Origin: Sedimentisphaerales bacterium
GTDB taxonomy: Bacteria > Planctomycetota > Phycisphaerae > Sedimentisphaerales > Anaerobacaceae
Reading direction: 5' to 3'
Length of the DNA stretch: 64,000 bases
Assembly (NCBI GenBank): GCA_963814265.1
Contig: CAWFCJ010000043.1
Location: 32,338 to 96,337, forward strand
Shown here: piece by piece, positions 2,720 to 62,743 of the stretch
How the letters are laid out: each line of letters opens with the position of its first letter
How positions within the stretch are numbered: position 1 is the stretch's first letter
Notes under the pieces: generated by a model
Told to the model about the DNA's origin: nothing
What the model saw: the letters and a program-made list of their open reading frames with translations, nothing else
Database searches by the model: none
Position numbers and translations under genes: made by a program

Positions 2720-2767
2720 CATTGTAGGCTATCTAATTCCGTCTCATGATAAGTAGGAGAAAAGGTC

Positions 2768-7221: not shown

Positions 7222-10200
7222 ATGTGTAGAAGACTAACTTACTCAATTTGTATCGCTCTGGTGCTGGGCCTGGTCGGTAACGCCAACGGGCAGCTCGGTA
7301 AAGGCAAGATCCTGTTCGAGTGGTTCGAGGGCACCACGGGCGGCAACATAGACCAGCTCGTGGACGGCAGGAATCCAAACTATCCGAACAACCCCACGAC
7401 ATACGAATGGCGGAGCAGTTTCCTGGGGCCGGTCAACCGAAGCGACAATTTCGGCACGCGCGTCCGGGGTTACCTTTACCCCCCTGCCGACGGCGATTAC
7501 ACATTCTGGATCTATAGTGACGACCACAGCCGGCTCTGGCTGAGCACCAACGATGATCCGGCGAACAAGAAGCTGATCTGCGAAGTGATCGGCAATACCG
7601 CTGTGAACGAGTGGACCAAGTATCCTGAGCAAAAGTCCACTGCCGTCACGCTGAAGGCCGGCCAGAGGTACTACATCGAGGCGCTGCACAGGGACGGCAC
7701 GGGCGGCGACAACCTCGGCGTCGGATGGGGAGGGCCAACCATCGGAGCAGGTCCTGTGATCATCGACGGGGCATATCTGGCAGCGTATTTGAGAGCCGTC
7801 GATTTTATGGCCGGCAATCCCGATCCAACGGACGGCGACAAGGACGTGACCTCACCGCTGGTCCAGTGGACGGCGGGACTGACCGCAAGTTTGCACGATG
7901 TGTACTTCGGCACTAATCCGACGCCGGGACTGGCTGAGTTCAAAGGCCGACAGAATTTTCTAGTGTACTTCCATACACCCGGCCTTATGTCGGGCACTAC
8001 CTACTACTGGCGGGTCGATGAGGTTGAAGCCGATGGCACTACGATATACACGGGCAAGGTCTGGAGCTTTACGGTTCCCGTCCTGGCTGCCCATGACTCC
8101 AGCCCGGCTGACGGTGTCGCATACGTGTATACAGATGTGGACCTGACTTGGGGTGCAGGTTTCAGTGCAATCTTTCACGATGTGTACTTCGGCACTAACA
8201 CGAGCGATGTCACTACCGGCGCCGCCGGCACGTTCAAAATCAAACAGACAGGTACAACCTACGATCCTGGAGCCCTTACGCCGGACACTACTTATTACTG
8301 GCGGATCGATGAGGTCGAGGCCGACAACACTACCAAGTACCCAGGCCAGGTCTGGAGTTTCAGAACAAGACCCGTTATGACGGTTAGCGATCCGAATCTT
8401 GTCGCTTGGTGGAAACTCGATGATGTGGGCAGCGGTAATGTGATTGATTATTCGGGCTATAATCGTGACGGCACAATCTATGGAAACCCGCTGTGGGTGG
8501 CCGGGTATGACGGCGGCGCGATGTCGTTTGCCGGCAGCGCCGATTACGTAAGCATAGTCGGCTACAAGGGCGTCCTGCGAATCTCGGCAGACCTGCAGCA
8601 TGCTTTTACCTGCACGGCCTGGGTCAGAACGAACGGCAATGGTGAGATTATGGGCTGGGGCCAGCCTTCCGGACGGCAGAGAGTGGAATTCCGCGTGGAC
8701 GGCAACCGCCTGCGCGTGGAGCACGGCAGCGGCGATATAAGAGGCGACACCCCCCTGAACGACAGTCAGTGGCACCACGTTGCGGCGGTTGTTCCAAGGG
8801 GTGCGGCGATCAGAAACGTTTTGCTCTACATAGACGGGCGACCGGACCCCATGCGAACCACGAGCACTCCGGATAACCTATTCAACATCACATCCAACTA
8901 TGATGTCACATTAGGCCGTCGCTACAACGCCGCCGAAAGGTGGTTCACCGGTCTGATTGACGATGCACGCATCTACGACAAGGCGCTGACACAGGCTGAG
9001 ATTCAGCAGATTATGATTAGGCCCGACCCCTTACTTGCCTGGAAGCCGAGCCCACCTAACGGGCTGCCGGCGGATGTCGAGCACGCCACGCCCCTTAGCT
9101 GGTCGCCCGGAGATGGTGCGGTTCAGCACGATGTGTACTTCGGCACCGATCAAGCCGCTGTTACCGCCGCCGATAAATCCGACACGACCGGCATATATCG
9201 AGTCCAGCAGACTGGGACCAGCTATACGCCCGGCGAAGCGCTCCAAGAGGGTCAGACGTACTACTGGCGGATTGATGAGTGCAAGGCCGACGCCACAATT
9301 AGTAAAGGCAGAACCTGGAGCTTCACGCTGGCCGACTATCTTATCGTGGACGACTTTGAGGCCTACACCGACGATGTCGGCAGCAGGATATTCCAGACCT
9401 GGCTGGACGGCTGGGGATTCAGCCAGCCGGCGCCCGGCTATCCCGGCAACGGAACCGGCTCGGCTGTAGGTTACAGTCAGGCTCCTTTTGCCGAGCAAAC
9501 GACCATTCGGAGCGGCAGGCAGTCGATGCCCCTTCAATATGTCAACGATGGCTCGACCGGCAAAACTCGCTATTCAGAGACAGAACGCTCCTGGGCTGTG
9601 CCACAGGATTGGACCAGAAAAGACGTTAAGGCGCTCACGCTGTGGTTTAGAGGCCTGACACAGTCGTATGGCAGCTTCGGCTATGACCCAGCGACAGGTC
9701 TTTATACGATAACTGCCCGCGGCACGGACATCTGGAATAACAAAAGGGCCAGGGAGTGGGGCCTGCACGATGAGTTCCACTATGTTTATAAGCGACTTTC
9801 CGGTGCCGGCACTATCGTAGTAAAGGCGCTGCGGGTCACGAACTCCAACGCCTGGGCAAAAGCGGGCGTTATGATTCGCCAGACGCTGGATGCCAACTCA
9901 GTGCACGCGATGATGGCTATTACCCCCGGTCAAGGCGTTGCCTTCCAGTACCGCGCTACTGCGGGTCTGGACAGCACGACGAATTTGCAGCAGACCGGAA
10001 TCGTCACACCACAGTGGCTCAAATTAGATCGCAGCGCTGCCGGCGACTTCACGGCCTATTATTCCGCCGACGGCAGCACGTGGACACAATTGGGTACGGC
10101 TATTAACATCGTCATGCAGGGCGATGTATATGTAGGGCTGGCCCTGACCAGTCACGCTGCCGGTACAACCTGTGCAGCCGAATTCTCCGATGTGACTCCT

Positions 10201-11382
10201 ACCGGCGCGGTTACCGGGCAGTGGCAGTCGCAGGACATAGGCATAATCAGCAACACCGCCGAGCCATTGTATGTGGCACTGGCTGATAGCACCGGCAAGG
10301 TTCATGTGGTGAACTACCCGGATGTCAATTCAGTGCTATTGACCGGCTGGCAGGAATGGAACATTGACCTGCAGCAGTTCAAAAATGCCGGCCTAAACCT
10401 TGCGAGCATCAAGAAAATGTATCTTGGCCTCGGCAATAGAACCAGTCCGAAGGCGGGCGGCACGGGTTACTTGTACGTCGATGACATCAGGCTTTATAGG
10501 CCCAGGTGCGTTGCTTCGCTGGCAAAACCCACAGGCGATTTCAGCAACAATTGCACGGTTGACTATCCGGACCTCCAGATAATCGCCAACAACTGGCTGA
10601 CCAGCGCCTACGATGTTACGCCCATAGGCGCCAGTACCGCGGGTCTTATCGCGCATTACAAGCTGGACGGCAACGCCAACGACAGCGTTGGTACCTACAA
10701 CGGTGCCGCGGTGGGCAGCCGGAACTACGTCGCAGGTAAGGTTGGCCAGGCAATCGACCTGGATAGCATTGGCGACTTTGTGGCGACCACAGCTACTCCT
10801 GCTATGCTCGGCATCGACGGCAATTCGCCTAAGACTGTCACCGCCTGGGTGTACACACGCAGCTTCAGTGGCGGCGGCATCTTCGACATGGGCGACAATA
10901 TCAACAGCCAGAACTTCTCGCTAAGAACGTTGACTCAGCCCAACCGTTGGCGGGCACAGCGTTACGGCTATCCGATCTATGACTTCGACTTCACGTATCC
11001 TTCCGCCAATGTTTGGGTGCATTTTGCCCTGGTGTACGAGGGCGCTGCCGGCGGAGATAAGAGCTGGGCGTACGGCAACGGCGAACTGGCTGGAAGCCAG
11101 ATAGCCGCCCTGAACACCACAAATGGCCGGCCCTTTGCAATAGGTGTGTGGAGCAATTACTACTTTGACGGCCTGATTGACGACGTGCGTATCTACAACC
11201 GAGCGCTATCCCAGGCTGAGGTTGCCGGCCTTGCAGGCAGGACCGGCACGTTCAGCCAGCCGCTATATCTGCTGCTGACGCCGCAGGATGCTGCCGTGAA
11301 TGCGCACGATGACGGCACGATCAATCTGGCGGACTATGCTCTGCTGGTAGATATGTGGCTGGATGAACTGCTCTGGCCGTAG
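7222..11382 (+). CDS. Giant secreted PA14 / LamG multidomain protein with dockerin-like C-terminal motifs (1386 aa, uninterrupted)
   Basis: Signal peptide, then a PA14 domain (GDYTFWIYSDDHSRLWL..GQRYYIEALHRDGTGGDNLGVGW). Three ~90-aa 'HDVYFGT..TYYWRIDEV..VWSF' modules follow. There are two LamG domains (LVAWWKLDD..LIDDARIYDKALTQAEI and LIAHYKLDGN..LIDDVRIYNRALSQAEV), a CBM-like 'IVDDFE..LYVDDIRLY' domain, and the tail DDGTINLADYALLVDMWLDELLWP. Confidence 0.85.
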   Translation: MCRRLTYSICIALVLGLVGNANGQLGKGKILFEWFEGTTGGNIDQLVDGRNPNYPNNPTTYEWRSSFLGPVNRSDNFGTRVRGYLYPPADGDYTFWIYSDDHSRLWLSTNDDPANKKLICEVIGNTAVNEWTKYPEQKSTAVTLKAGQRYYIEALHRDGTGGDNLGVGWGGPTIGAGPVIIDGAYLAAYLRAVDFMAGNPDPTDGDKDVTSPLVQWTAGLTASLHDVYFGTNPTPGLAEFKGRQNFLVYFHTPGLMSGTTYYWRVDEVEADGTTIYTGKVWSFTVPVLAAHDSSPADGVAYVYTDVDLTWGAGFSAIFHDVYFGTNTSDVTTGAAGTFKIKQTGTTYDPGALTPDTTYYWRIDEVEADNTTKYPGQVWSFRTRPVMTVSDPNLVAWWKLDDVGSGNVIDYSGYNRDGTIYGNPLWVAGYDGGAMSFAGSADYVSIVGYKGVLRISADLQHAFTCTAWVRTNGNGEIMGWGQPSGRQRVEFRVDGNRLRVEHGSGDIRGDTPLNDSQWHHVAAVVPRGAAIRNVLLYIDGRPDPMRTTSTPDNLFNITSNYDVTLGRRYNAAERWFTGLIDDARIYDKALTQAEIQQIMIRPDPLLAWKPSPPNGLPADVEHATPLSWSPGDGAVQHDVYFGTDQAAVTAADKSDTTGIYRVQQTGTSYTPGEALQEGQTYYWRIDECKADATISKGRTWSFTLADYLIVDDFEAYTDDVGSRIFQTWLDGWGFSQPAPGYPGNGTGSAVGYSQAPFAEQTTIRSGRQSMPLQYVNDGSTGKTRYSETERSWAVPQDWTRKDVKALTLWFRGLTQSYGSFGYDPATGLYTITARGTDIWNNKRAREWGLHDEFHYVYKRLSGAGTIVVKALRVTNSNAWAKAGVMIRQTLDANSVHAMMAITPGQGVAFQYRATAGLDSTTNLQQTGIVTPQWLKLDRSAAGDFTAYYSADGSTWTQLGTAINIVMQGDVYVGLALTSHAAGTTCAAEFSDVTPTGAVTGQWQSQDIGIISNTAEPLYVALADSTGKVHVVNYPDVNSVLLTGWQEWNIDLQQFKNAGLNLASIKKMYLGLGNRTSPKAGGTGYLYVDDIRLYRPRCVASLAKPTGDFSNNCTVDYPDLQIIANNWLTSAYDVTPIGASTAGLIAHYKLDGNANDSVGTYNGAAVGSRNYVAGKVGQAIDLDSIGDFVATTATPAMLGIDGNSPKTVTAWVYTRSFSGGGIFDMGDNINSQNFSLRTLTQPNRWRAQRYGYPIYDFDFTYPSANVWVHFALVYEGAAGGDKSWAYGNGELAGSQIAALNTTNGRPFAIGVWSNYYFDGLIDDVRIYNRALSQAEVAGLAGRTGTFSQPLYLLLTPQDAAVNAHDDGTINLADYALLVDMWLDELLWP

Positions 11383-11400
11383 GAGGAAAACCCCCAAATA

Positions 11401-11424
11401 AATCCTTCGACCCGGCTCAGGACG
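11401..11424. repeat. Copy of the dispersed 'PVLSxVEG' palindromic-unit arm (reverse orientation)
   Basis: AATCCTTCGACCCGGCTCAGGACG. The 21 nt at 11401-11421 are identical to 50193-50213. The reverse complement resembles 53388-53411, 25319-25342 and 33494-33522. Confidence 0.6.
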
Positions 11425-11430
11425 GGTTTG

Positions 11431-11516
11431 GGGGCTAAATATTTAGCCCCGCAACTTGTTGCGGGGTTCGGATGCACCAAATCGGGGTCCATGCCGATGC
11501 GTATGGACCCCGATTT
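11431..11516 (+). terminator. Array of three perfect hairpins downstream of the giant gene (likely a terminator region)
   Basis: GGGGCTAAATATTTAGCCCC (11431-11450); CCCCGCAActtgTTGCGGGG (11447-11466); AAATCGGGGTCCAT-N10-ATGGACCCCGATTT (11479-11516). Confidence 0.5.
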
Positions 11517-11539
11517 GCGTCGAATCCCCTGAATTTGTC

Positions 11540-11569
11540 TTGAAATAAAGGCCGATAATATGGTATAAG
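11540..11569 (+). promoter_or_regulatory. Sigma70-like promoter with an extended -10
   Basis: TTGAAA (11540-11545), 18 nt, TGgTATAAG (-10 at 11564-11569). The architecture matches the promoter at 7127. Confidence 0.45.
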
Positions 11570-11646
11570 TAGTTGTCGATTTTCGCTCCTCGGGCGTTGG
11601 GCGGGCGAAATTGTCAATCTTCAGTTATCTTTGAAGGAGGCACGTC

Positions 11647-14600
11647 ATGTACAAAAAACTTCTTTTTGTGTTTTTGGTGTCCCTGATGGCTGTCAGTACC
11701 GCTGTCGCCGAGCTGGTTGCGCACTATCGGCTCGATGAAGGCACCGGCACAACCACCGCAGATGCTTCAGGCAAGGGCCATACCGGCACGATTCAGGGCA
11801 CGCCCACCTGGGTGGATGGACCGCCCGGCTATGGCAAGGCACTATACTTCAACGGCCAAAATCCAACCAGCGGGTGGGTCAACTGCGGAACCTGGAATCC
11901 TTCCGCCGGAACGGGACAACTGAGCGTTGCCTTCTGGGCGAGATGGGATGGGTCCATGGGCTCCGATCAATATCAGGGCCTGGTCAGCAAGAGAGACGAC
12001 TGGGACTCCACCGGCAGGCGCACTTAGCATGTGGGAAATTGAGATCGACGCCACCACCAACGTCGTGCACTTTTTCCGGGGCGGCAGTTACCCATCAAGC
12101 GGCGGTTATGTTATGCCCGTGGGACAATGGGTGCATATAGCGGTAACTTTCAACGGAACCACCGCGATCTTTTATGTCAACGGAACCAGACAGGCAGCGG
12201 CAGTTTCTCATTCGGTCCGAAAACCGATGCAGTAGTCACCATCGGATGCGATAGTGGTGCCAGCGGCTGGAACAGCTTTAACGGCAGCCTTGATGAGGTG
12301 CGCCTGTACAATACCGTGCTGCCCCCGGCTGAGATTAAGGCCCTTGCCGCCAAGTATGGCGCCACCAACCCCAACCCGGCAGATGGGGCGAAAATCAGCC
12401 AGACCTCCGTGGCGCTTAGCTGGACGGCGGGAGCTTTTGCCGAAACGCACCACGTGTTTTTTGGCGACAACTACGACGCCGTGTACAATGGCGCTGCCTC
12501 TACCGACAAGGGCATCCAGGCCTTTACCGTTTATTGGGTGCCCGATCTGCTGATAGGCAAAACCTATTACTGGCGTGTCGATGAGGTTAGTGCCACGCAC
12601 GCCGGTAGCCCCTGGAGAGGCGCGGTCTGGAGCTTTACCATTCCTCCCAAAACCGCCTGGCAGCCAAATCCGGCTGACCTCTCCAAATACGTGGATACCA
12701 GCGTGACTCTAAGCTGGTCTGCAGGCCTTAACGCGATTCTGCACCACGTATATCTCGGCACCAACTTTGATGCGGTCAAGAACGCTGACACATCCGACAC
12801 AAGCGGCATATACCGCGGTCCTGTGGGAACGCCAACAACTTATACGCCCCCAACGCTGGCATTTAACACCGATTATTACTGGCGGGTTGATGAGTTCGAT
12901 GCCGTTACCCCCATGAACAAAGGACCTGTCTGGAGTTTTACCACTACTCCGCCCGGCCTGGGCAAGGTCCGGCGCGAAATATGGGAGAATATTACCGGCA
13001 GCACTCTAGATGCGCTCAAGAATAACATCAACTTCCCAAGCAACCCAACCTTTGAGCGATGACTTGACTTCGTTCGATTCGACAGACCGTGGCGACAATT
13101 ACGGCGGTCGGCTTCATGGCTGGCTACACGTGCCGGTCGCAGGCGACTATACGTTCTGGATCGCTAGTGACGACCAGGGCGAGCTCTGGTTGAGCACCGA
13201 TGATGACCCAGCCAACGCAGTTCTAATTGCCAGTGTGCCTGATTACACCGGCGCCCACCAGTGGGAGAAATATCCCAGTCAGCAGTCCCAGCCGATAACG
13301 CTGCAGGCCGACAGGTACTATATTATGGCGTTGTGGAAGGAAGGCGAAGGCGGCGATAATTGTTCGGCTGCCTGGCAGGGTCCCGGCATCCCGACACGAG
13401 TGGTAATTGCGGGCACTTATATGAAGCCTTTCGAGGCCTTATGGGCGCTTGGCCCCAAACCGGCCAATCGGGCAACCGATGTGAGCCAGACGACTACGCT
13501 TGGCTGGAAGCCTGGAGAGAAGGCCGCCAAGCACGACGTATACTTCGGCGCCAGTGAGCAGGCTGTAACCAATGCCAATACCACAACTACGGGCATTTAC
13601 CGAGGCAGGCAGAATCTTGATGCTACCAGTTATGTGCTGCCCGAAGCTCCGCTGGAATGGGCAAAGACCTACTATTGGCGTATCGACGAGGTCAACGGCG
13701 TCGACCTCTGGGAGGGCGCATCTGGAGATTTACCACCGCCAACTTTATCGTTGTCGATGATTTTGAGCAGTACACGGACGATATCGCCAATAGGATATTC
13801 AGGACCTGGCTGGACGGATGGGGTTACACCGAACCTGTCGCTGGGGTATCCAGGCAACGGCACAGGCTCCGCTGTGGGTTACGGTCAGGCGCCCTTCGCC
13901 GAGCAGACCATCATCCATAACGGCAAGCAGTCGATGCCGCTGGCTTACGACAATACTGGTACGGGCGGCAAGGCACGTTACTCGGAGACACAACGCGAGT
14001 GGGCCACGCCGCAGGATTGGACCACAAAAGGCGTAAAAGCGCTGACCCTGCGGTTCCATGGCGATCCGAATAACGCCGCGGAACCCTTGTACGTAGCTGT
14101 CAAAGATAGTCTCGGCAGAACAAAGGTCGTCAACTACGCAAATCCCGATGCCGCCCTGTCGAACAACTGGCAGGAGTGGAACATCGACATGAAAGAATTC
14201 GTTAGTGCCGGGCTCAATCTATCCGGCGTGAAGACGATGTATATCGGCCTGGGCAACCGGGTAAGTCCCAAGGCAGGCGGCACAGGCACAATATACATTG
14301 ATGATATTCGGCTGTATCTGCCGCGATGTATTCCTTCGCTGCTAAAGCCGGCCGCCGATCTGAGCGGCAACTGCGTGGTCGATTATCTTGACCTGCAAAT
14401 GATAGCAAACAACTGGCTCGCTACGGGAGCAGCACCCAACGACGCTAAGCTGGTCGCCCGCTACACGCTTGACGGCAACTTCAATGACAGCTCCAGCTAC
14501 ACCGGCTTGCAGAATGGCGACCCTCGCAACGGCGCAGCCATAATCAGTGATGCGGTAAGAGGCCAAGTGGCACACTTCGACGGTGCTGACGACTTCGTTG

Positions 14601-24254: not shown

Positions 24255-24288
24255 GCCAGAGAAACTACTTTCAGGGGTGATTTTGCTA

Positions 24289-24316
24289 TTGACACTTGGC
24301 AGATTCACAGTAGATT
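24289..24316 (+). promoter_or_regulatory. Possible sigma70-like promoter
   Basis: TTGACA (24289-24294), 16 nt, TAGATT (24311-24316). AGGAGG at 24331-24336 lies 8 nt before the GTG at 24345. Confidence 0.4.
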
Positions 24317-24344
24317 CTATGTCAAGCTGAAGGAGGTAGGGTCC

Positions 24345-24578
24345 GTGAGGAGGATCGTCGAACTCGGCTTTTTGAGCGACAGAGATTTGTCGATTTTTGT
24401 TCGGCTAATCGGCAGTAGACGTTGTCTGCCTATTTATCGCGGCGGCTTTTGGGCTTGCTACGAGTGTCCATTTCAGTCTGATGACCTGCAAATCATGGCG
24501 GCGCATATTATGCGCATCCACGAACCTGCCCCGTTGAGCAGCGAAGAGGAACTGTGCGAAGAGTACCATAGGGTCTGA
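24345..24578 (+). CDS. Small hypothetical protein with a canonical C2H2 zinc-finger spacing
   Basis: 77 aa with a GTG start behind a strong RBS. CYEC-PFQSDDLQIMAA-H-IMRI-H gives C-x2-C-x12-H-x4-H. Confidence 0.45.
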   Translation: MRRIVELGFLSDRDLSIFVRLIGSRRCLPIYRGGFWACYECPFQSDDLQIMAAHIMRIHEPAPLSSEEELCEEYHRV

Positions 24579-24619
24579 TACGGCAGCCAGCGTTTCAAAA
24601 CAGTAGTTCAAAAAACCTG

Positions 24620-24772
24620 CCACAGAGGACACAGAGTTCACAGAGAAATAGAAAAACAACCACAGATTTCACAGACCTGAGGTTTTTTTACCGCTGAGAG
24701 CGCGGAGACCGCAGAGAAAACGCCCTTTATATTCTTCGTCTCGGCGCTCTCGGCGTGCTCTGCGGTTAATCC
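24620..24772. repeat. Cluster of 'CTCTGYGG / CCRCAGAG' short dispersed repeats (3-4 units, both orientations)
   Basis: ccacagaggacacagagttcacagagaaa (24620-24648); ccgctgagagcgcggagaccgcagagaaaa (24691-24720); tctcggcgctctcggcgtgctctgcggttaatcc (24739-24772). Confidence 0.7.
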
Positions 24773-25258
24773 AAGTAAATCCGCGTCTAAAAAAAGGTGA
24801 TCGAAAAGCATTCCGCGTTGCCGTAAAGATAGCGACCCAGATTAACACGACTCAGAATTTGAATTATCCGGAATTTAGTAAAATTGGCATTTTTCGGCTA
24901 TTTTTCAGAGACCATAGCCAATATCCGTTCAAGAACGCGGTTTAGGAGTCATACTGTGGGGAATAGGTAAAATGGGCAAGAAAAAACAGGGTAAAAAAGC
25001 ACGAAAAATGAGCAGAAACGCACAGAAATTAGTCGAAATTTGCAAAAACCGCGCGTTTTGAGCAGAAATTGACAGAAATTTACCACTTTTTACAAATTAA
25101 CATTTTGTCAAAGTGGGGCAAATAGGTAAGGCTATAGGCGGTGGATGGTGACTGGTGACTCGTCATTCGTAACCCGTTACTCATTCTGTGCTGGGCATTT
25201 CAGGATTTCAGTTTCTCACACGTTTTTCCACCCCCCTGCTCAAATCGCAGAGAATTCA

Positions 25259-25298
25259 AGAGAACGCAGCCACAGAGGACACAGAGGCCACAGAGATA
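25259..25298. repeat. Unit of the same 'CCACAGAG' repeat family
   Basis: gagaacgcagccacagaggacacagaggccacagagataa, near-identical to 24620-24648. Confidence 0.7.
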
Positions 25299-25318
25299 AT
25301 AAATACATAGAAACAGAA

Positions 25319-25342
25319 CCTGTCCCGAGCGCAGTCGAGGGA
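25319..25342. repeat. Copy of the 'PVLSxVEG' unit arm
   Basis: CCTGTCCCGAGCGCAGTCGAGGGA, followed by a partial duplication (gcaatcgaggga). Confidence 0.5.
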
Positions 25343-25543
25343 GCAATCGAGGGAACTAATTAACGCGGCAAGAAAACCTGTCTGCCGACAGGCAAGATTA
25401 GCACTTACAAAACAGTGGAAATCCGTGTAAATCCGTGTCCAGGATCAACAAAAAATGGCGGGATTCGTCGAAATATCCTTGCAAAATCAGGCGCCCTTGA
25501 ATTAGAATTAGCAAAGCTCAAAGGCTTAAAGGAGGAAATTCAA

Positions 25544-39990: not shown

Positions 39991-41174
39991 GCGTGCATGT
40001 TATAGGCGGGAACCTGGTGGCCAGGCGAACCATCGTTTCATAGTTGGCCATCATTCTGGGCGTGATTTTCCGCCCGTTCGGGGCCGATGACGGCATCAGG
40101 ACGAAGCCCTTTCCCTCGCCGCTTGTCCCATCTATCAAGGCCCTGTCCACGACCTTCTCAAACTCAGCCGGCTCCGTACTCTCCAGGTCGGCAATCTCCA
40201 GATTTCCGAAAAGAACCAGGTCCTTGCCGTACCTGCGGCGGACATCAGCCAGCTCCACGTCGCCCTGTGGAGGCGGTTCGATAGGGTCAATTGCATCTAT
40301 GCCCATATCGACAATGTAGTCAAGGACGGCACGAATCCTGCCGTGGCAATGAATTCGGGCAAAACCGCCGTACTTTTGGATGATCTCGAACCATCGGGCC
40401 GGTGTACCGCACCACGTACTCTTTGAAAAGATGCGGCGGCAGGTAAGGCTCAGTGAGCATATTCCGGCCCGTATATCCGCCACAGGTGGCCGGGAAACGC
40501 CTTCGCTGCTTTCTCAGTCCTGGCGATATATATGGCGGGAGAGCTTTTCGAGCAGGCGATGGAAAAGTTTCTGCTCGGTCAAGGCAATAACGGTAAAGTC
40601 TTCCATACTGAAAAGAGACGCTGCTGCACAGATAGGGTCTTCCGTATCGACCATAACGATGCCACGGTCGCCGAGCTTTCTCTTCCTCCACCAGACCTGC
40701 CACGTTGACCTGCTCGGCGAAAACCTCATCGGGCAACTGCAAATATGCCTTCAGGTCGTCTATATTTTTGAGCAGGTGCTCCAGACGTCCACACGGTATC
40801 AATGTCAGGATTGCGGCGGGTCAGTGACGTGATGGTTCTACCGCCAACCTTCAGAGTCACCCGCTTGAAACGGGACCATCCTCTTCATATTTTTCTGTCC
40901 TGAAGAATTCGCTCGCCGGGTCTCGAGCCTCTGACTTGTGTGGGACTCGCTCGACTTCATGCGAGCGGGACCTGACGGGGCTGCGCATACGAATAAGATC
41001 GGTTTGCTCCTCCGCCAATTGTAGCAACGGCTGCCAGGATGGGTCGTTATAAACGTTGAACCTATCCGGATCGGATGGGTCGATCTGGAATCCGCCGATC
41101 TCGTAGAAGTTAACCGCCGGCCGGTCCACCGGTTCGCCGCGTAGAGTGGCCATCAGCCGTTCACGCCGCGTCAT
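39911..41174 (-). CDS. Uroporphyrinogen decarboxylase (URO-D) family protein (MtaA/CmuA-like methyltransferase or decarboxylase); several frameshifts, 3' end uncertain
   Basis: MTRRERLMATLRGEPVDRPAVNFYE in ORF 40857-41174. Middle pieces are in ORFs 40514-40729 and 40320-40802. The C-terminal part ..IHCHGRIRAVLDYIVDMGIDAIDPIEPPPQGDV..GKGFVLMPS.. is in ORF 39911-40483. The last 80 nt overlap the convergent gene that ends at 39990. Confidence 0.6.
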
Positions 41175-41359
41175 TGCACCTTCTCGGCCTTGCCCATCTT
41201 TGCTCCGGCTGATTCCTGGGCATCAGCTTGCTTGCTGAGACTTTTGAAAAGCGCTCGGATATTCAGGAAACCGCCGACCAAAACAACTACTGCCAGAATA
41301 ACAAAAAGCCCAAGACTAATGAGAAAGAACCACGACCAGAACTGTATCCAGAAATTCAT
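41171..41359 (-). CDS. Small single-TM membrane protein, translationally coupled (ATGA) to the URO-D-like gene
   Basis: 62 aa, MNFWIQFWSWFFLISLGLFVILAVVVLVGGF followed by a charged tail. The stop overlaps the ATG at 41174. Confidence 0.5.
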   Translation of the reverse strand: MNFWIQFWSWFFLISLGLFVILAVVVLVGGFLNIRALFKSLSKQADAQESAGAKMGKAEKVQ

Positions 41360-41442
41360 TTCTGGTTGCTCCTAACCCGGACTAGCCGGAATCAAATAGG
41401 TGTATGATGAGTTCTCAAAAAATCGAAGTTGGGCATACTTTG

Positions 41443-41474
41443 AAAAGCAAAAATGCGGCAGCCTTTTTGCTTTT
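41443..41474. terminator. A/T-stem hairpin, probably a bidirectional intrinsic terminator
   Basis: AAAAGCAAAAA-tgcggcagcc-TTTTTGCTTTT, with 11-bp perfect arms. Confidence 0.5.
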
Positions 41475-41510
41475 CAAACCATCAGAGACCAACATCAGAA
41501 CATCGTTCTC

Positions 41511-41552
41511 TATTATTTGAGCACATCCCCAGCCGGATTTGCTCAAATAATA
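41511..41552. other. 13-bp perfect inverted repeat (operator-like or hairpin) downstream of the symporter gene
   Basis: TATTATTTGAGCA-N16-TGCTCAAATAATA. Confidence 0.5.
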
Positions 41553-41611
41553 TATGTCCAACTTCAATTTTTTGACCATCTTGCGCACAATTTCATTGCT
41601 CGGGGACTAAG

Positions 41612-53737: not shown

Positions 53738-55347
53738 ATGGATGTGAAAATTAAAACGGCATTGATAAGTGTTTCGGACAAGAGCGGTGTAGTGGATTTG
53801 CCAAGAAGCTGAGCGAGATGGGGGTAAAGATAATCAGCACCGGCGGCACCGCCAAAAAACTTGCTGAGGCCGGCATAAACGTTGTTGGTATTGAGTCGGT
53901 TACGGGCTTTCCGGAAATGATGGATGGCAGAGTCAAAACGCTCCATCCCAAGATACACGGAGCTCTGCTGGGACTGCGGGACAAGCCTGAACATAAGGCG
54001 GCGATGCAGAAACACAATATTGAGCCGATCGACTTGGTCTGCGTGAATCTTTATCCGTTCGAGCAGACCATTGCCAAGCCGGACTGCACCTTGGAAGATG
54101 CGATTGAGAACATCGATATTGGCGGGCCGAGTATGCTTCGCTCGGCGGCCAAAAACCATAAGTTCGTTACTGTGGTGACACAAGTCAGCCAGTATGGCAA
54201 AGTCATCGAAGAAATGCGAAAAAACGGCGGCGCGGTGAGCGAACAATTTCGCAGCGATTTTGCACGGACGGCCTTCGAGCTGACTGCTTCGTATGACGCC
54301 GCCATTGCAAAATATCTGGCCGGCCGGGCAGGCGTAGACTATCCGGAAAGGGTCTCAATCGCGCTGACAAAAGCGGCATCGCTGCGGTACGGTGAAAACC
54401 CCCACCAGACCGCGGCGTTCTATAAGCTGCCGCCGAGCGGCGAACCATCGGTCTGCAGCGCAAATTTGTTAGTGGGCGAGGTCGACATCAGCTTTAACAA
54501 CATCTTAGATGCCAACGCGGCCTTCGAGCTGGTCAAGGAATTTGAAGAGCCGGCGGCCGTGGTGGTTAAGCACCTTAATCCGTGCGGCTGTGCCGTCGAT
54601 GAAGATATTCTGGTCGCATACCGCAAGGCCTATGAAGGTGACGTGACAAGCGCGTTCGGCGGCATTATTGCTCTCAATAGGAGCGTTGACGTCGAGCTAG
54701 CCCGAACGATTATGGAGTCCTACAGTCGATTTGGCAAAGCGCTGGGGGCTGAGGGTTTCTTCGCCGAGGTGATCGTCGCCCCGCAATTCGAGCAGGAGGC
54801 TATTGAGATAATAAGGACGCTGAAAAGCTGGGGCAGCAGAGTTCGGCTGCTGCAGACCGGGCCTATCGACAGAAAAAAGATTGACCGCGGCGAATACGAT
54901 GCTCGCTGCGTGATTGGTGGAATGCTCCTTCAGCAGAGGGATTTAGCTGGTTGGGAGCCGGACCAATTGACGTATCCGACAAAGGCCAGGCCGACCGCCG
55001 ACCAGCTTGCGGATTTGAGGATGGCCTGGCTTACCGCCAAGCACACCAAGAGCAACACCATAGTGCTGGTCAAGAACAAAAAGATTATCGGCGTAGGAGC
55101 CGGACAAATGAACAGGGTCGAGTCCGGCCTGATCGCCTTCAGGCATGCCGGCAAAGAGGCTAAGGGCTGCGCTATGGCATCCGATGCGTTCTTCCCGTTC
55201 GCCGACAACGTTGAAAATGCCGCTGAGGCGGGCGTAGCTTGCATTGTTCAGCCGGGTGGCTCGAAGAAGGACGATGAGGTCATCGCCGCCGCCGACAAGC
55301 ACGGCATCGCTATGGTCTTTACCGGCAAAAGACACTTTAAGCACTAA
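53738..55347 (+). CDS. purH: Bifunctional AICAR transformylase / IMP cyclohydrolase PurH; one frameshift near the 5' end
   Basis: GGAGAAGGAG RBS, then ATG at 53738 gives [20 protein letters not shown]. Adding one T to the T-run near 53795 joins it to [36 protein letters not shown].. (track ORF 53818-55347). Confidence 0.9.
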
Positions 55348-55366
55348 GAGAAAGAGGTTACAGGCT

Positions 55367-55579
55367 ATGCGGTATAGAATTCTGATAGAGCAGGATGAAG
55401 AGGGAATATTTGTCGCGGAATGTCCTTCTTTACCCGGATGTATTTCGCAGGGAAAAAGTCGAAGAGAAGCGCTCCAAAATATTGGTGATGCTATTAGAGG
55501 ATATTTGGAGAGCTTAAAGAAGCACAACGAGCCCATTCCGCCATCAATTGAAGAAGAGATTATTGAGGTGGCAATTTGA
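55367..55579 (+). CDS. hicB: HicB-family antitoxin (UPF0150)
   Basis: MRYRILIEQDEEGIFVAECPSLPGCISQGKSRREALQNIGDAIRGYLE is the typical HicB N-domain. 70 aa. Confidence 0.85.
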   Translation: MRYRILIEQDEEGIFVAECPSLPGCISQGKSRREALQNIGDAIRGYLESLKKHNEPIPPSIEEEIIEVAI

Positions 55580-55806
55580 CGAAATTACCCGTCCTCTCGG
55601 GCAAACAGGCGTGCAAGGCGCTGGAAAAGATTGGTTATTCAGTGGACCATCAGACGGGCAGCCATATCATTCTCAGGCAGGAAAGTCCACCTCACCGGAG
55701 ATTGACTGTGCCTGACCACAAAGAAATTGCGAAAGGTACTTTGCGGGCTATCATCCGACAAACTGGATTAACTCTGGACGAATTCAAGGAGTTGACATCC
55801 CGCTAA
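55576..55806 (+). CDS. hicA: HicA-family mRNA interferase toxin
   Basis: LSGKQACKALEKIGYSVDHQTGSHIILR. TTG start overlapping the hicB stop. 76 aa. Confidence 0.85.
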   Translation: MTKLPVLSGKQACKALEKIGYSVDHQTGSHIILRQESPPHRRLTVPDHKEIAKGTLRAIIRQTGLTLDEFKELTSR

Positions 55807-57746: not shown

Positions 57747-58301
57747 TTATTCCTCTATTAGCTCGGCCAGTTCTTCCCGTAAGCGTTTTCTGGCACGGGT
57801 TAGTCGCACTCCCAGGGCGTTTTCAGTCACTCCGAGAATCTGGCAAATCTCTGCCGTAGACAGCTCCTGCAGATACCGCAGCACTATAGGCTCTCGATAT
57901 CTGGCCGGCAAGCCTCTTATAGCCCGGCTGATACGCTCGACAGTTTCTCTATCGGTCAATCTTCTATCCGCAGCCGACGCTGTCCTGGGACAAAACCCGG
58001 GCACTTTTTTGTGTCGCAGGAGTATGCGTTTATATCGGTAGCTACGGCATTTATTTATCGTTATGGTAAAGAGCCAGGTTTTCAGACTGCATTGGCAGCG
58101 AAACTTTTTTAAGCCGAGATACGCAGCCAGAAAGACATCCTGAGTCACGTCCTCGACTTCGCCCGGCCAGCCGAGCAGACGATTAGCCAGCACCGCGACT
58201 TCAGCGGAGTACTGCCGGACGATTCTTTCGAAGACCGATTCGTCGCCCTGATTGAATTTCTTGACGAGAGACTCGTCATCGTTAATCTCGGCCATGACCA
58301 T
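57747..58301 (-). CDS. ECF-type RNA polymerase sigma-70 family factor
   Basis: Region 2 is VEDVTQDVFLAAYLGLKKF..LKTWLFTITINKCRS. Region 4 is LPARYREPIVLRYLQELSTAEICQILGVTENALGVRLTRARKRL. An ATG at 58301 or 58295 is preferred to the GTG at 58316. Confidence 0.85.
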   Translation of the reverse strand: MVMAEINDDESLVKKFNQGDESVFERIVRQYSAEVAVLANRLLGWPGEVEDVTQDVFLAAYLGLKKFRCQCSLKTWLFTITINKCRSYRYKRILLRHKKVPGFCPRTASAADRRLTDRETVERISRAIRGLPARYREPIVLRYLQELSTAEICQILGVTENALGVRLTRARKRLREELAELIEE

Positions 58302-58470
58302 TATATTAGACCGCACATTAGGCGGAGACTTACAAAAAATCCCGGAAAAACCAAAAGGCGATACTTGTCGACCATGCAGGCAAAAAACCCAATAGAACCT
58401 GAGTCTCCGCGGCAGTTGATCTTGTATAGTGCTACTTTAGCGGTTTTCCCCAGAAAGCGCATCTTTGTTC

Positions 58471-58508: not shown

Positions 58509-58549
58509 TATAATATATGGATATGCAGGTTTTCTTTGTGAGTGGTGTA

Positions 58550-58807
58550 GTGAAAACCAATATCGTAAAAATAGGCAATTCGCAGGGAATTCGTATCCCG
58601 AAGCTTTTACTTCGTCAACTCCAGTTGACACGGGATGTAGAGTTGACAGTGAAACACAACCAATTGGTAATCAAGTCGAGCCAACATCCACGCCAGGGCT
58701 GGGATGAGCAGTTTAGACAGATGGCTGAGAGACGAGACGACCGGCTGTTAGACAAAGATGCGGTAAGCCTAACCCAATGGGACCAGGATGAGTGGCAATG
58801 GAAGTAA
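58550..58807 (+). CDS. mazE: MazE/AbrB (SpoVT-AbrB fold) antitoxin
   Basis: VKTNIVKIGNSQGIRIPKLLL..VELTVKHNQLVIK. GTG at 58550 is preferred to the track start at 58517. Confidence 0.8.
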   Translation: MKTNIVKIGNSQGIRIPKLLLRQLQLTRDVELTVKHNQLVIKSSQHPRQGWDEQFRQMAERRDDRLLDKDAVSLTQWDQDEWQWK

Positions 58808-59130
58808 AACGCTTTGATGTCTACCTGGTCAACCTGGACCCAACTGTAGGCAAAGAAATAAAGAAGAACCGTCCCTGCCTGGTAATATCGCCTGACGAAA
58901 TGAACAGGCACATTGCCACCATAATTGTCGCTCCGATGACGACCAAAGGCGGGCAGTATCCAACACGGGTGTCGTGCCACTTCCAAGGAAAGCATGGTCA
59001 GATAGTGCTTGACCAATTGCGGACGGTGGACAAAGTCAGATTGGTTAAAAAGCTTGGACGAATAGGCTCAAAAGTGCGACAAACAGTGCATAGCAGTTCT
59101 TGGCGAGATGTTTGTAGATTAGCCCACTGA
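58798..59130 (+). CDS. mazF: MazF/PemK-family endoribonuclease toxin; C-terminus possibly frameshifted
   Basis: MEVKRFDVYLVNLDPTVGKEIKKNRPCLVISPDEMN..IVAPMTT. The start overlaps the mazE stop. An alternative frame after about 59088 ends ..AVLGEMFVD with a stop at 59120-59122, which looks more native. Confidence 0.85.
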   Translation: MEVKRFDVYLVNLDPTVGKEIKKNRPCLVISPDEMNRHIATIIVAPMTTKGGQYPTRVSCHFQGKHGQIVLDQLRTVDKVRLVKKLGRIGSKVRQTVHSSSWRDVCRLAH

Positions 59131-59503
59131 GATGATAAGCACAGCACACACTGCCTTTCTGACATAATCTCCGCAAGGGCGGTTCCCGATGCAGGCGATT
59201 CTACAAATGCACAAGGTTCTGGAAAGTTGGTTTGACGGAGGACTTGATTCTCGGTATCGTAATCACAGGTGAGCAGAATCGCCTGGCCTGATTGACTATG
59301 CGGTCAGTAGCATACGTGGTAGGCAGGCCAAAACATAGGACGCAAATCACCACCATCATCGCAGTATGAGTAAAAAGGGCTATTTCACATATTAGGAAAG
59401 AGAATGCAAGAAAATGGCCAGATTCAGCCGATAATATGAAATGAGGTATACCGACATGACAAGCAGAAAACCTTCGGCCAGAAAAAAAACAAAATCAAAG
59501 CGG

Positions 59504-61014
59504 ATGCAATTGAGCATAGAGGTGGAGGACTTTGGGCCCATAAGTCGTGGGAAGGTGGCACTTAAACCTCTTACCTTATTCATAGGCCCTAACAACTCGG
59601 GAAAGTCCTACCTTGCGATGTTAGTTCATTCCGTATTTGAGGCGTATTCCCCAACAGGCCTGCTGAGGCGTGGACCTCTCTACATGAGGCGAGGCTTTCT
59701 TACCAGGGGACTCGATATTGGTCTGTTTTCCAAGCAGTGGCGGGAACTAAAAACGTACCTTGGCGACTCAAGTCAAGGGCGAAAAGTAGACATCCCGCAA
59801 GAATTCATCCAAAAGATAACCAGGAAGGTTTTGCGAGATATACGAGAGCAGGCTATCTGAAGAAATCATTCATTCATACGCTTGCAAGTTACGCGAATTG
59901 GTCCGTGTTGGAAAAAAGTCATTTGGCCTCAAAATCGGACTCGATTCCCACATGGCCGAGCTAACATACCGAAAAGGAAAGATGTTGGAGATGATCGCCT
60001 TTCCAGAAGTGGACTTAAAGATAAGTATCAAGGGAAGCGCGTCATCTGGTTACATAAGGAGTAGGGTGAAAAATGGTCAGGTTATCCTCGAGCTCGGTGA
60101 AGATATCTGGAAACATGATGACTTTCCTCTCACTAGTATCATCCTCGACATTTGTGTGTCCAGGATGTCGGAACTAGTTCCGATGTCATGTTTCTACCTT
60201 CCAGCCGCGCGGTCGGGCATACTTCAGGGTCACAAAGCACTCACTGCGGGCATAATGAGGAAAGCACCTTTAGCAGGTCTGGAAAGGATGAGAAATCCCG
60301 GCATTCTCGGGAGTCGTCTATGATTTTATATCATCTGTGATCACCTTGCCTGAAAAAAAGGGGCGATTTTATAAACTCGCACGCGATTTTGAGAGAGAAC
60401 TAATCAGCGGAGAAATACTTATGCAGGCTGGGGGTGACCACCCATATCCTGAGATTAGATACAGGTTCAAGAAAATAAATATTCCACTCCACAGAGCGTC
60501 CTCCACGGTGTCCGAGTTGGCCCCGCTGTTCCTCTATTTGAAGTATCGGATCGAAGCCGGGAGCATTCTAATAATAGAAGAGCCGGAGGCACACTTGCAC
60601 CCTGCAAGCCAGAGGATTCTGGCTAAGTTCATAGTTAGGTTGCTCAGGCAAGGCGTTTACGTCACCATTACTACTCACAGCGAGTATTTGTTGGAGCAGT
60701 TAAGCACTTTTATACTCCTCAGTAGGATAGATCCCGAAAAACGCGCAAAATATAAATACACACAAGATGATTTCCTCCAGCCGGAAGAAGTGGGTGTATA
60801 CGTGTTTAATTATGATTCCGAGAGCGGGGGTCAAACAATAACGGAAATTCCAATAACAGAAGAAGATGGAATCTCTCAAGAAGAGTTTTTAAGAATCCAC
60901 GAAGCCCTTTATAACGAGAACCTTCATGCTTCGAAGCGACTTGGCTGGCGAAACATAAGGAGTAAGAGACTTCTCTATGCCAATGCTGGAGTGTATTCGG
61001 ACCAATTTCTCTGA
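59504..61014 (+). CDS. ABC-type (AAA_15/AAA_21-like) ATPase, candidate defence-system component; two frameshifts as sequenced
   Basis: Walker A is LFIGPNNSGKSYL. The Q-loop-like motif is FYLPAARSG. The signature-like motif is SSTVSELAPLFLYL. Walker B is SILIIEEPEAHLHP and the H-loop is TITTHSEYLLEQL. A DUF3696-like tail reads VGVYVFNYDS..ITEIPITEEDGISQEEF. The sense runs through ORFs 59441-, 59898- and 60337-, with junctions near 59838-59845 and 60292-60305. The start could be 59441 or 59504. Confidence 0.8.
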
Positions 61015-61435
61015 GGCGGTTGTCCCACGCTGCTCTGATATGGGCTGCACTCTCGAACTCGATGGCCTACCTAACTCAGTCGTATTGAAGGGGGAGAAAA
61101 TCACCACAGACCGTAAAATATGCGATTGCCTCGTGTTTGCGGTACATAATGGTGTACTTATTGGGGTGGTAGAACTGAAAAGCAAGACTGTACATGCGGA
61201 TGAAGTAGTCGAAAAACTTACTAATGGGACCGAGACTGCCTTACAGGTATTAGACAGATGCGGTAACAACTGGATGAAGCCGCAAGTTTATAACCTTGTT
61301 CTCGCCAAGAGGTGGGATGGTTCTGAATATAGGGTCCTGACCAACAGAAAGGTTATGGTAAGGGGGAGAAAGTATCTAATTCTCCCTAAAAGGTGCGGGG
61401 TTTCCTTCTCCGGAATCATATCAAGTTTACCGTAA
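60977..61435 (+). CDS. Small PD-(D/E)XK-like (restriction-endonuclease-fold) protein, partner of the ATPase
   Basis: 152 aa. KICDCLVFAVHNGVLIGVVELKSKT gives D-x14-E-x-K on two predicted consecutive beta-strands, followed by a helix and another strand (VYNLVLAKR). AAGGAG at 60957-60962. It overlaps the ATPase 3' end by 38 nt. Confidence 0.5.
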   Translation: MPMLECIRTNFSEAVVPRCSDMGCTLELDGLPNSVVLKGEKITTDRKICDCLVFAVHNGVLIGVVELKSKTVHADEVVEKLTNGTETALQVLDRCGNNWMKPQVYNLVLAKRWDGSEYRVLTNRKVMVRGRKYLILPKRCGVSFSGIISSLP

Positions 61436-61543
61436 TTCCTTGGCGTAAGGTCCGCGCACACTCGTGAATAGAGCCGTTGCGGCGTGCATGTTCGATACAA
61501 GTCAATTCGCAGGTGGGATGCATGTAACCCACAAGATACACTA

Positions 61544-62743
61544 TCACCTGGTGGTCTTCGGTTTCAGTCCGGCGGCTTTGCGAAGCTTGGCGACCATGTC
61601 GGTTTTTTCCCAGGTGAAGTTTGGATGGTTTCGGCCAAAATGGCCGCCGTGCGAGGTGTCCGCGTAAATCGGTCGGGCAAGCTTCAAATGCTCAATCATT
61701 CCCTTGGGCGTCAGCGGGAAAAGCTCCCTCACGATCTGGCTTAGCTTCTGCTCGCTAATCTTGCAGGTTCCTTCGGTGTTGACAAGCACAGAAACAGGCT
61801 CGGCTACCCCTATGGCATAAGATAACTGGATTTCACAGGCATCAGCCAGGCCGGCGGCGACTACGTTTTTGGCTACATATCTTGCCATATAGCTGGCGCT
61901 GCGGTCGACTTTGGTGGGGTCTTTTCCGCTGAAGCAGCCGCCCCCGTGCCGGCCCCAGCCGCCGTAAGTATCGACCATAATTTTACGCCCGGTGACGCCG
62001 CAATCGCCCTTGGGGCCGCCAATTACGAATCGGCCAGTCGGATTGACGTGAAATACAATGTGTTTGTCTACGAGGCGCTTTGGAAGAACAGGCAAGACAA
62101 TCTTCTCGATGATTTCTCTGCGTAACTGTCGGTGTGAGATTGTCGGCGCGTGCTGAGCAGCTACGACCACCGTGTGAATGCGTTTTGGCTTGCCATTCTG
62201 ATATTCGACCGTCACCTGGCTTTTGCCGTCCGGCCGCAACCAGGGAAGTTTTTTACTTTTACGTGCCTTTTCAAGCTGAGTTGTTATAGCGTGAGCCAGT
62301 TGAATCGGCATAGGCATAGAAGCCGGCGTTTCTCTACGGGCGTAGCCAAACATAAGTCCCTGGTCGCCGGCGCCCTGCTCCTTGTGCAGGCCTCGGCCTT
62401 CAGTGACACCCCGCGAGATATCCGGACTTTGCTTTCCAAGCGAAACCATAACGGCGCAGCTTTCGCAGTCGAATCCCAGTGCCGGGTCGTCATAGCCGAT
62501 CTTTCGTATCGTTTCGCGGACAACAGTGGGGACATCCACAACGGCCCTTGAGGTAATTTCGCCCGCAACTATAACCAGGTTGTCCTTGACCATTGTTTCG
62601 CAGGCCACCCTGCTTGCCGGGTCCTGCGCGAGCATCGCATCAAGGATTGCATCCGATATATGGTCGGCGACCTTGTCGGGATGGCCCATTGTCACGGACT
62701 CGCTGGTAAAAAGATAGTTAGCACCGGTCATTTTTTTCCCCAT
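61544..62743 (-). CDS. metK: S-adenosylmethionine synthetase
   Basis: [68 protein letters not shown] and [19 protein letters not shown]. Confidence 0.95.

Follow-up and report, generated by a model that had tools for sequence, protein, structure and literature searches.

Does the two-gene locus at positions 59441–61435 of a planctomycete contig encode a new kind of anti-phage system or a divergent form of a known one, and can this copy still act? The locus lies in a 64,000-nucleotide (nt) stretch (the window, whose numbering is used throughout) of contig CAWFCJ010000043.1 from a Sedimentisphaerales bacterium (assembly GCA_963814265.1), and comprises a gene for an OLD-like ABC ATPase followed by one for a small protein of 152 amino acids (aa). 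An earlier reading of the letters alone (hereafter the sequence-only reading) had proposed a sensor–effector pair with a PD-(D/E)XK nuclease, in a combination that it did not recognise as a named system. Comparison with characterised systems shows the pair, as predicted from its sequence, to belong to the class of anti-phage systems in which an OLD-like ABC ATPase is joined by a small PD-(D/E)XK nuclease. Two named systems, PD-T4-4 and WonAB, already have this architecture, and the best PADLOC match of the ATPase is PD-T4-4_A, so the claim of an unnamed combination falls. The pair sits in a divergent branch whose members come mostly from uncultured organisms, with many Archaea among them. The ATPase of the pair is closest to PD-T4-4_A, and the nuclease is related to PD-T4-4_B and WonB but shorter and rich in cysteine. 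We put at roughly 70% the probability that the locus, judged from sequence, is a divergent-branch pair of the PD-T4-4/WonAB class whose ATPase copy is disrupted here. The module consists of the following features, where ORF is an open reading frame.

59441–60958, plus strand: OLD-like ABC ATPase gene, PD-T4-4_A-like, ancestral extent ~505 aa (ORF list, Pfam, PADLOC, tblastn)
59441–59860, 59898–60323 and 60337–61014, plus strand: the ATPase as sequenced, three ORFs in three frames (ORF list)
60957–60962, plus strand: AAGGAG, ribosome-binding site of the small ORF; overlaps the stop codon of the restored ATPase (sequence)
60977–61435, plus strand: uninterrupted small ORF, 152 aa, predicted minimal PD-(D/E)XK nuclease (homologues, conservation, AlphaFold2, Foldseek, hhalign)

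The ATPase is closest to PD-T4-4_A

Six motifs were located in the ATPase.

59585–59608, plus strand: Walker A, GPNNSGKS (K55), from residue 49 (homologue alignment)
60195–60218, plus strand: YLPAARSG at the Q-loop position, residue 253, with R at the motif position
60499–60519, plus strand: signature-like SSTVSEL, residue 354
60565–60588, plus strand: Walker B, ILIIEEPE, residue 376
60589–60603, plus strand: D-loop, AHLHP, residue 384
60670–60687, plus strand: H-loop, TTHSEY, residue 411

These comprise all ABC-ATPase motifs in canonical order, conserved in an eight-sequence homologue alignment. After correction of its frame, the protein matches Pfam AAA_15 (1.9e-22) and AAA_21 (1.7e-15), and ~327 residues separate Walker A (residue 49) from Walker B (residue 376). 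The full ABC/AAA_21 motif set and the ~330-residue spacing of the sequence-only reading are thus borne out. Its DUF3696-like C terminus is not: DUF3696 (PF12476) is absent among the Pfam matches of the ATPase at E ≤ 1, and is not recorded in the precomputed Pfam domains of 120 listed ATPase homologues. Homologues of the ATPase number about 1300. A tblastn search against phages gave only partial matches, to Vibrio phage AAA proteins.

Of 121 PADLOC families, the best match of the corrected ATPase is PD-T4-4_A (PDLC04033; 7.3e-43, 145 bits), which the intact homologue from locus L001 matches at 1.8e-53 (180 bits). The second-best family is PDC-M47A (8.8e-31). Matches to the OLD-like clade follow in AriA (1e-24), GajA (8e-14) and Old (7e-12), and the class 2 OLD structure 6p74 in the Protein Data Bank (PDB) is matched at 8e-4. 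The ATPase also aligns over 95% of its length (25.6% identity, E 1e-16) with the A protein of a pair on the E. coli plasmid NZ_CP051743, a bona fide PD-T4-4 by PADLOC (A 3e-123, B 1e-43). No TOPRIM domain was matched by Pfam in either the ATPase or the small protein. Of the Pfam and PADLOC checks that had been proposed, those on AAA_15/AAA_21 and PD-T4-4_A were positive and that on DUF3696 negative, and the B models were silent on the nuclease.

The small protein is a probable nuclease

Three putative catalytic residues and five conserved cysteines stand out in the small protein.

61124–61126, plus strand: putative catalytic D50
61172–61174, plus strand: putative catalytic E66
61178–61180, plus strand: putative catalytic K68
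within 61031–61396, plus strand: codons of conserved cysteines C19, C24, C49, C51 and C140

Pfam, PADLOC and NCBIfam give no meaningful match to the small ORF, and a family-profile sequence search of the PDB returned only chance ribosomal-protein matches. The family is nevertheless large: a word-indexed search yielded 52 homologues, and a profile search 1136 clusters (50% identity) at E ≤ 1e-3, 488 of them at E ≤ 1e-10; a tblastn search of plasmids found none. Across 135 sequences, D50 and E66 are each kept in 134 (99%) and K68 in 131 (97%), and position 40 is acidic (E or D) in 98%. The spacing of the three residues is D-x15-E-L-K. Their placement on adjacent strands, proposed earlier with a spacing of x14, stands in the AlphaFold2 model, and the spacing is corrected by one residue. 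The model is confident (predicted local distance difference test (pLDDT) 93.5, predicted template modelling (pTM) score 0.90); in it D50 lies just before strand 51–56 and E66 and K68 lie in strand 60–68, followed by helix 74–95 and strand 103–110. The predicted topology is that of the PD-(D/E)XK core (alpha-beta-beta-beta-alpha-beta).

The best Foldseek match of the model, 2p14 (small subunit of R.BspD6I), is weak (E 4.8e-3, TM ~0.35, TMq 0.36). The top 40 are almost wholly restriction-endonuclease-fold proteins; matches include the R.BspD6I small subunit, BsmI, Bse634I, Cas4, NucS/EndoMS, McrC, Can2/Card1, Hjc and HamA, and in the viral library herpesvirus UL24. The small protein is thus a probable PD-(D/E)XK nuclease, as the sequence-only reading held, on the strength of the conserved D50, E66 and K68, the modelled fold and Foldseek lists dominated by restriction endonucleases, in which the individual matches are weak.

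The five cysteines are 83–97% conserved in the same 135 sequences (C19 97%, C24 97%, C140 90%, C51 85%, C49 83%) but as a set they are missing from PD-T4-4_B and WonB, where only the cysteine beside the catalytic aspartate is retained. They may coordinate a metal in the small nuclease, at a structural Zn or Fe–S site.

The two genes form a conserved unit

An ATPase gene (430–506 aa, AAA_15/AAA_21) lies directly upstream, on the same strand, in 6/6 small-gene loci that were looked up, one of them from a Thermoproteota archaeon. Related loci in species representatives of GTDB were searched for with a 12-sequence small-protein alignment, giving 24 loci. In one of these, only 198 bp precede the small gene; in the 23 that could be judged, the ATPase is directly upstream and ends ~10–60 nt short of the small gene. 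With homologues of the small ORF running to hundreds and the pairing kept in every judgeable locus, the association exceeds chance. The ATPase and the small gene are therefore a conserved unit, a sensor–effector-type pair, as had been proposed, and remain neighbours wherever their synteny could be followed.

Hosts of the pair include Methanosarcinales, Archaeoglobus, Thermofilales, Micrarchaeota, Woesearchaeota, Nitrosopumilus, Planctomycetota, WOR-3 and Deltaproteobacteria. Bacterial and archaeal ATPases are up to 77% identical, which indicates horizontal transfer between the domains.

Several side observations concern the make-up of these loci. The ATPase is consistently better conserved than the nuclease in L015–L038; in L018, identity with the respective query is 77% for the ATPase and 51% for the small protein. 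In L033 (Nitrosopumilus sp. UBA526), the small gene is followed on its own strand by a second, paralogous ATPase gene (4811–6148 of that locus; 33% identity with the query ATPase), so that the nuclease is flanked by an ATPase on both sides. A conserved third gene was considered and rejected: the ~290-aa ORFs downstream of the pair in several Methanosarcinales loci are orthologous among close relatives only, and are unrelated to the MNT-HepT-like ORF downstream in L017.

The nuclease is a divergent relative of PD-T4-4_B and WonB

PD-T4-4, from E. coli ECOR58 (Vassallo et al. 2022), is a validated anti-phage system of 1973 bp described as 'ATPase, nuclease' (PMC9519451, Table S1/S2), and its nuclease has been classed as PD-(D/E)XK (PMC10952713; bioRxiv 2025.07.10.664194). 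The introduction of bioRxiv 10.64898/2026.07.10.737580 calls the same effector an HNH nuclease. This label looks like a slip of the literature, as the other sources and the PD-T4-4_B sequences themselves (D ... D/E-L-K) indicate PD-(D/E)XK.

The link between the small protein and PD-T4-4_B is visible by profile–profile comparison only. With hhalign, the small-protein family aligns with PD-T4-4_B at a probability of 86.8% (E 4e-6) from a 35-sequence alignment and of 94.3% (E 1e-7) from a 135-sequence alignment, over ~50 core columns. The alignment pairs D50 with D89, E66 with D106, K68 with K108 and N83 with N123. The likeness can be read off directly in the B protein of the NZ_CP051743 pair (...NKSCDLVIV...VVVLDLKSK...QIENS) and the window protein (...KICDCLVFA...GVVELKSK...EKLTNG). 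In AlphaFold2 models, the order of helices and strands is alike from end to end, PD-T4-4_B having an insert of ~35 aa before the D-bearing strand; a Foldseek search with the PD-T4-4_B model gave a noisy list.

A similar comparison connects the family with WonB. Against WonB and the 'novel REase' (restriction endonuclease) sequences, taken from Tables S4 and S5 of PMC12137116, the 135-sequence alignment gives 87.2% (E 3.9e-6) in hhalign; the hidden Markov model of the small-protein family (A1) scores at most 7.9 bits on seven WonB/novel-REase sequences. WonA and WonB map to the PADLOC candidate PDC-M29. The window ATPase matches PDC-M29A at 2.7e-11 (rank 17), against 2.8e-26 for WonA itself, and PDC-M29B has no match to the window small protein.

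WonAB (Vibrio cholerae and others; Adams et al. 2025) and an operon described as 'OLD-ABC ATPase + novel REase' are of the same architecture class, within what PMC12137116 describes as a larger family that joins ABC-ATPase sensors to nuclease effectors. Defence by WonAB needs both genes, and is lost in mutants of the WonA Walker A, Walker B and H-loop and in WonB K71A. The system protects by abortive infection. Overproduction of WonB is toxic, and this toxicity requires active WonA, being lost when WonA is deleted or inactivated. Genomic DNA stays intact while translation stops, suggesting an RNA target (all PMC12137116).

Three lesions disrupt the ATPase frame as sequenced

Lesions were placed by comparison with intact homologues and with the related contigs L012, L042 and L043 (blastn, translation).

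59836–59839 (approximate), plus strand: frameshift 1, loss of 2 nt (GA) from a GAGAGA run, compared with the 94%-identical L043; restored peptide RKVLREIYES
60290, plus strand: frameshift 2, one extra G, GGATGAGAAAT against GGAT-AGAAAT in L042 and L043; restored peptide GLERIEIPAFSG
60919–60920 (~60919), plus strand: frameshift 3, one extra A, GAGAACC against GAGA-CC; the base is missing in L012, L042 and L043

Searched with the intact homologues P0222 and P0224, the window gives three tblastn high-scoring segment pairs in three frames. The frame is thus broken as the sequence-only reading had noted, at three sites and not the two that it counted. At the first site, homologues read RKIFREIYERRL; an alternative placement of this frameshift in the TTTT run at 59829–59832 was dropped, as L043 shows the GA deletion a few bases downstream. 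L043, 93.9% identical to the window, has an ATPase open across all three lesion sites over its 382 covered codons, and L012 (95.6% identical) lacks the third lesion. In the restored frame all motifs are kept and no further lesion is present. The restored ATPase terminates ...SDLAGET at the TAA at 60956–60958, 18 nt before the ATG of the small ORF. The ATPases of L012, L042 and L043 terminate in the same residues, and the stop-then-ATG arrangement is shared by all intact homologues. The 38-nt overlap of the two genes noted earlier exists because frameshift 3 lets the ATPase run on to 61014; it is a by-product of that frameshift and no true operon feature. The 152-aa ORF and its AAGGAG ribosome-binding site stand as described.

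L042 comes from an independent assembly and is 99.84% identical over 1860 bp (window 60215–62076). Only three differences separate the two sequences, all in the ATPase. Two are indels: L042 lacks the extra bases at 60290 and ~60919. The third is a nonsense codon in L042 (CAA to TAA at 60877–60879), a premature stop that costs the conserved last 31 residues of the ATPase. Frameshift 1 falls outside its coverage. No difference falls in the nuclease ORF, the intergenic spacer or metK. This pattern suggests alternative loss-of-function alleles of the ATPase within one population. The lesions can be read in two ways. The two single-base insertions of the window may be errors of its assembly, or else strains that are almost the same may each have a knock-out allele of their own.

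If all three frameshifts were assembly errors or strain-mixture artefacts, the module would be intact and functional in the organism. We regard this as unlikely, albeit the strongest of the rival explanations. It draws on the two insertions missing from L042, on a proportion of indels among the window–L042 differences (two of three) that is unusually high for real variation, and on a restored frame with every motif and no other lesion. It is opposed by the state of the remaining sequence: the other window ORFs of at least 260 aa, 36 kb in all and one of them 1386 aa long, are all unbroken, and with assembly errors arising at a uniform rate, the chance of at least three indels within the 1518 bp of the ATPase is P ~3e-4. 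None of the three lesion sites has a long homopolymer, and frameshift 1 is not covered by L042. Moreover, a sequencing error of the indel type cannot account for the nonsense codon of L042, so that on either reading the gene seems to be failing in the population. Programmed frameshifting was considered implausible, given three separate sites of differing kinds and relatives with an open frame. Two contig scans for close relatives spanning the frameshifts returned none.

The window copy of the ATPase is therefore probably truly inactive. By analogy with WonB, which requires active WonA, the module in this genome is most likely non-functional and in early decay. The possibility that the ATPase is a decayed relic, raised in the sequence-only reading as fatal to its proposal, is accordingly the probable state of this copy, to judge from the three indels and the L042 stop.

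Genomic context and residence

The neighbourhood of the module holds two toxin–antitoxin pairs, a sigma factor gene and metK.

55244–55579: HicB
55576–55806: HicA
57747–58316, minus strand: ECF (extracytoplasmic function) sigma factor
58517–58807, plus strand: MazE (Pfam MazE_antitoxin PF04014, 3.3e-07)
58792–59130, plus strand: MazF (Pfam PemK_toxin PF02452, 7.8e-29)
61544–62743, minus strand: metK

All of the neighbours named earlier (MazEF, HicBA, ECF sigma and metK) were located, and the AT-richer islet described there was confirmed by measurement, with a GC content of 0.45–0.48 across 58.25–61.5 kb against 0.51–0.57 in the flanks. The MazE and MazF genes are adjacent and overlapping (58517–59130), and both expected Pfam domains were found; MazEF is a neighbouring toxin–antitoxin pair outside the ATPase–nuclease module. 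Scans of 58.0–61.8 kb for promoters, terminators and repeats gave background levels only and no flanking repeats, and Rfam at gathering thresholds found no RNA family in the whole window.

The gene order of the window (ECF sigma, ATPase, small gene, metK, DUF547) recurs in L039 and L041, where the ATPase is 71% and metK 75–77% identical to the window's. Neither MazE nor MazF is matched in these syntenic loci, which have only ~370–420 bp between sigma and ATPase genes; MazEF must have been gained in the window lineage or lost in that of L039/L041.

Separate observations concern L012. Across 60357–61910, its ATPase 3′ part and small ORF differ from the window at 24/1017 nt (2.4%) and its metK segment at 36/366 nt (9.8%), mostly synonymously (Fisher P 3e-8). 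In this comparison the module looks much younger than its metK flank, and its low divergence may reflect recent recombination or exchange among relatives.

Elsewhere, some loci of the pair lie among defence or toxin–antitoxin genes. L005 has ParE, PIN, HepT-MNT, Cas6 and Csa3 as neighbours, L008 a CRISPR-Cas locus ~5 kb away, L017 its MNT-HepT-like ORF, and L010 GmrSD plus a DUF3696 ATPase nearby. In L010, a GmrSD_N (DUF262-type) gene, an AAA_15/DUF3696 ATPase and a 311-aa ORF occupy 8549–11684, directly downstream of the pair; they seem to be a distinct defence-type cluster stacked onto the module. The check for enrichment in defence islands that had been proposed thus came out mixed: toxin–antitoxin, CRISPR or GmrSD genes stand beside some loci, and a scan of 20 GTDB loci found mostly housekeeping neighbours. 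The association with defence islands is weak, mixed at best.

These observations bear on whether the pair might instead be non-immune, a housekeeping ATPase–nuclease for chromosomal nucleic-acid maintenance, repair or some other role, kept vertically. The gene order shared with L039 and L041 and the prevailing housekeeping neighbours of the 20 GTDB loci would suit such a role. We consider it improbable in view of the patchy spread over widely separated phyla of Bacteria and Archaea, which together with ATPase identities of up to 77% between the domains indicates frequent horizontal transfer, of the loci among toxin–antitoxin, CRISPR or GmrSD genes, of an ATPase gene dispensable enough to be broken here, and of the proven anti-phage activity of the closest characterised relatives, PD-T4-4 and WonAB (PMC9519451, PMC12137116). 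It is very improbable that the pair works like a toxin–antitoxin couple, with a toxic nuclease that the ATPase does nothing but neutralise. Such a reading draws on the Pfam description of AAA_21 ('putative AbiEii toxin, Type IV TA system'), on the position beside MazEF and near HicAB, and on the toxicity of overproduced WonB. But that toxicity needs active WonA, which excludes simple sequestration (PMC12137116), and here the supposed antitoxin is broken beside an intact toxin ORF, which would be lethal under a simple toxin–antitoxin relationship.

One further observation concerns the window at large: three stretches of more than 1.1 kb (2299–3414, 24255–25414 and 40484–41611) have no ORF of at least 120 aa.

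Interpretation

Several points weigh against the reading of the locus as a divergent, disrupted pair of the PD-T4-4/WonAB class. The ATPase scores 145–180 bits on PD-T4-4_A, compared with 332–410 for bona fide members. The PADLOC models PD-T4-4_B, PDC-M47B and PDC-M29B miss the window small protein (no match at E ≤ 1); at E ≤ 0.1, none of the homologues P0002, P0036 and P0052 matches PD-T4-4_B, and the sole match to a B model is that of P0036 to PDC-M47B (E 0.021). We class the pair as a divergent variant rather than as PD-T4-4 proper. Every Foldseek match is weak, none reaching E ≤ 1e-3. The 80 neighbour ORFs in the 20 GTDB loci are mostly housekeeping, with only two type II methyltransferases and one homing endonuclease among them. 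The fixed slot between ECF sigma and metK looks like long vertical residence in the window lineage, and not like a mobile island. Both single-base insertions are absent from the 99.84%-identical L042, and hence may be assembly errors in the window. Finally, the defence role of this branch is a putative one, assigned by analogy.

On the model of WonAB (PMC12137116), the ATPase would dimerise through its ABC head and bear the nuclease on its C-terminal extension. A phage-derived cue, together with ATP binding or hydrolysis, would license the nuclease, which would then cut nucleic acid and abort the infection; WonAB leaves DNA intact and probably acts on RNA of the translation apparatus. By the same analogy, a broken ATPase would silence the system and leave an intact nuclease ORF harmless, which fits the state of the window.

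A more far-reaching proposal can be made only tentatively, and we hold it as somewhat more doubtful than not. In it, the pairs of ~500-aa ATPase and ~150-aa cysteine-rich mini-nuclease would make up a functional branch of their own, as yet without a name, within the PD-T4-4/WonAB superfamily, widespread in Archaea and uncultured bacteria. The branch would have moved between domains and would carry a cysteine metal site absent from PD-T4-4_B and WonB. The differing ATPase knock-outs of near-identical strains, each beside an untouched nuclease gene, would then reflect selection to disarm a costly, self-toxic system, and not neutral decay.

For annotation, a large family that has no Pfam match, and whose nuclease the PADLOC B models miss, is now tied to the PD-T4-4/WonAB class, and the class is extended to many archaeal lineages. 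Intact orthologues are now available (for example L039, L001 and L002), and genomes that are almost identical offer a natural series of alleles in which the ATPase has lost its function.

Comparison with known systems

PD-T4-4 shares with the window pair the co-directional order of ATPase then small nuclease, a similar extent (1973 bp in ECOR58, 1995 bp here as sequenced) and the nuclease core C-D ... (D/E)-L-K-S ... (Q/E)-x2-N. The window ATPase differs in being only ~26% identical to PD-T4-4_A and ~45 aa longer. The window nuclease, at 152 aa against 190–206 aa, is without the ~35-aa insert and the invariant TLD and NKS motifs of PD-T4-4_B, has the additional highly conserved cysteines C19, C24 and C140, and escapes all four PADLOC PD-T4-4_B models. 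The hosts differ too: uncultured bacteria and many archaea for this branch; mostly Enterobacterales, with one Aeromonas, for the PD-T4-4_B homologues that were found.

WonAB resembles the pair in its OLD-type ABC ATPase with R at the Q-loop position (PASRS in WonA, PAARSG here) and in its nuclease of ~140–150 aa with C-D ... E-L-K and a lysine at a similar position (K71 in WonB, K68 here). It is the sole relative with mechanistic data, namely abortive infection, ATPase-dependent nuclease toxicity and translation arrest. It differs in that WonA is ~390 aa long, with shorter inserts, and in that the nuclease is often the first gene among those entries of Tables S4 and S5 that were consulted.

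PDC-M47, an untested candidate for which a literature search found no describing publication, provides the second-best A match, and the family member P0036 is marginal on the catalytic core of PDC-M47B (E 0.021); its B component has no significant match to the window nuclease. PARIS (AriA/AriB), Gabija (GajA) and P2 OLD belong to the same OLD-like ABC ATPase clade, but their nuclease is a TOPRIM, fused or as AriB, whereas the partner here has a PD-(D/E)XK-like motif and no TOPRIM. Septu (PtuA/PtuB) likewise combines an ABC ATPase with a separate small nuclease, but PtuB is an HNH nuclease, and the NCBIfam PtuA model matches the window ATPase at 5.7e-4, far below its cut-off.

Set beside these systems, what is new here is modest: a large, Archaea-rich branch whose nuclease, shorter and rich in cysteine, escapes the PADLOC B models, and, in the window, a probably decaying copy. 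The locus first put forward as a candidate novel system is thus probably an inactive copy of a known type.

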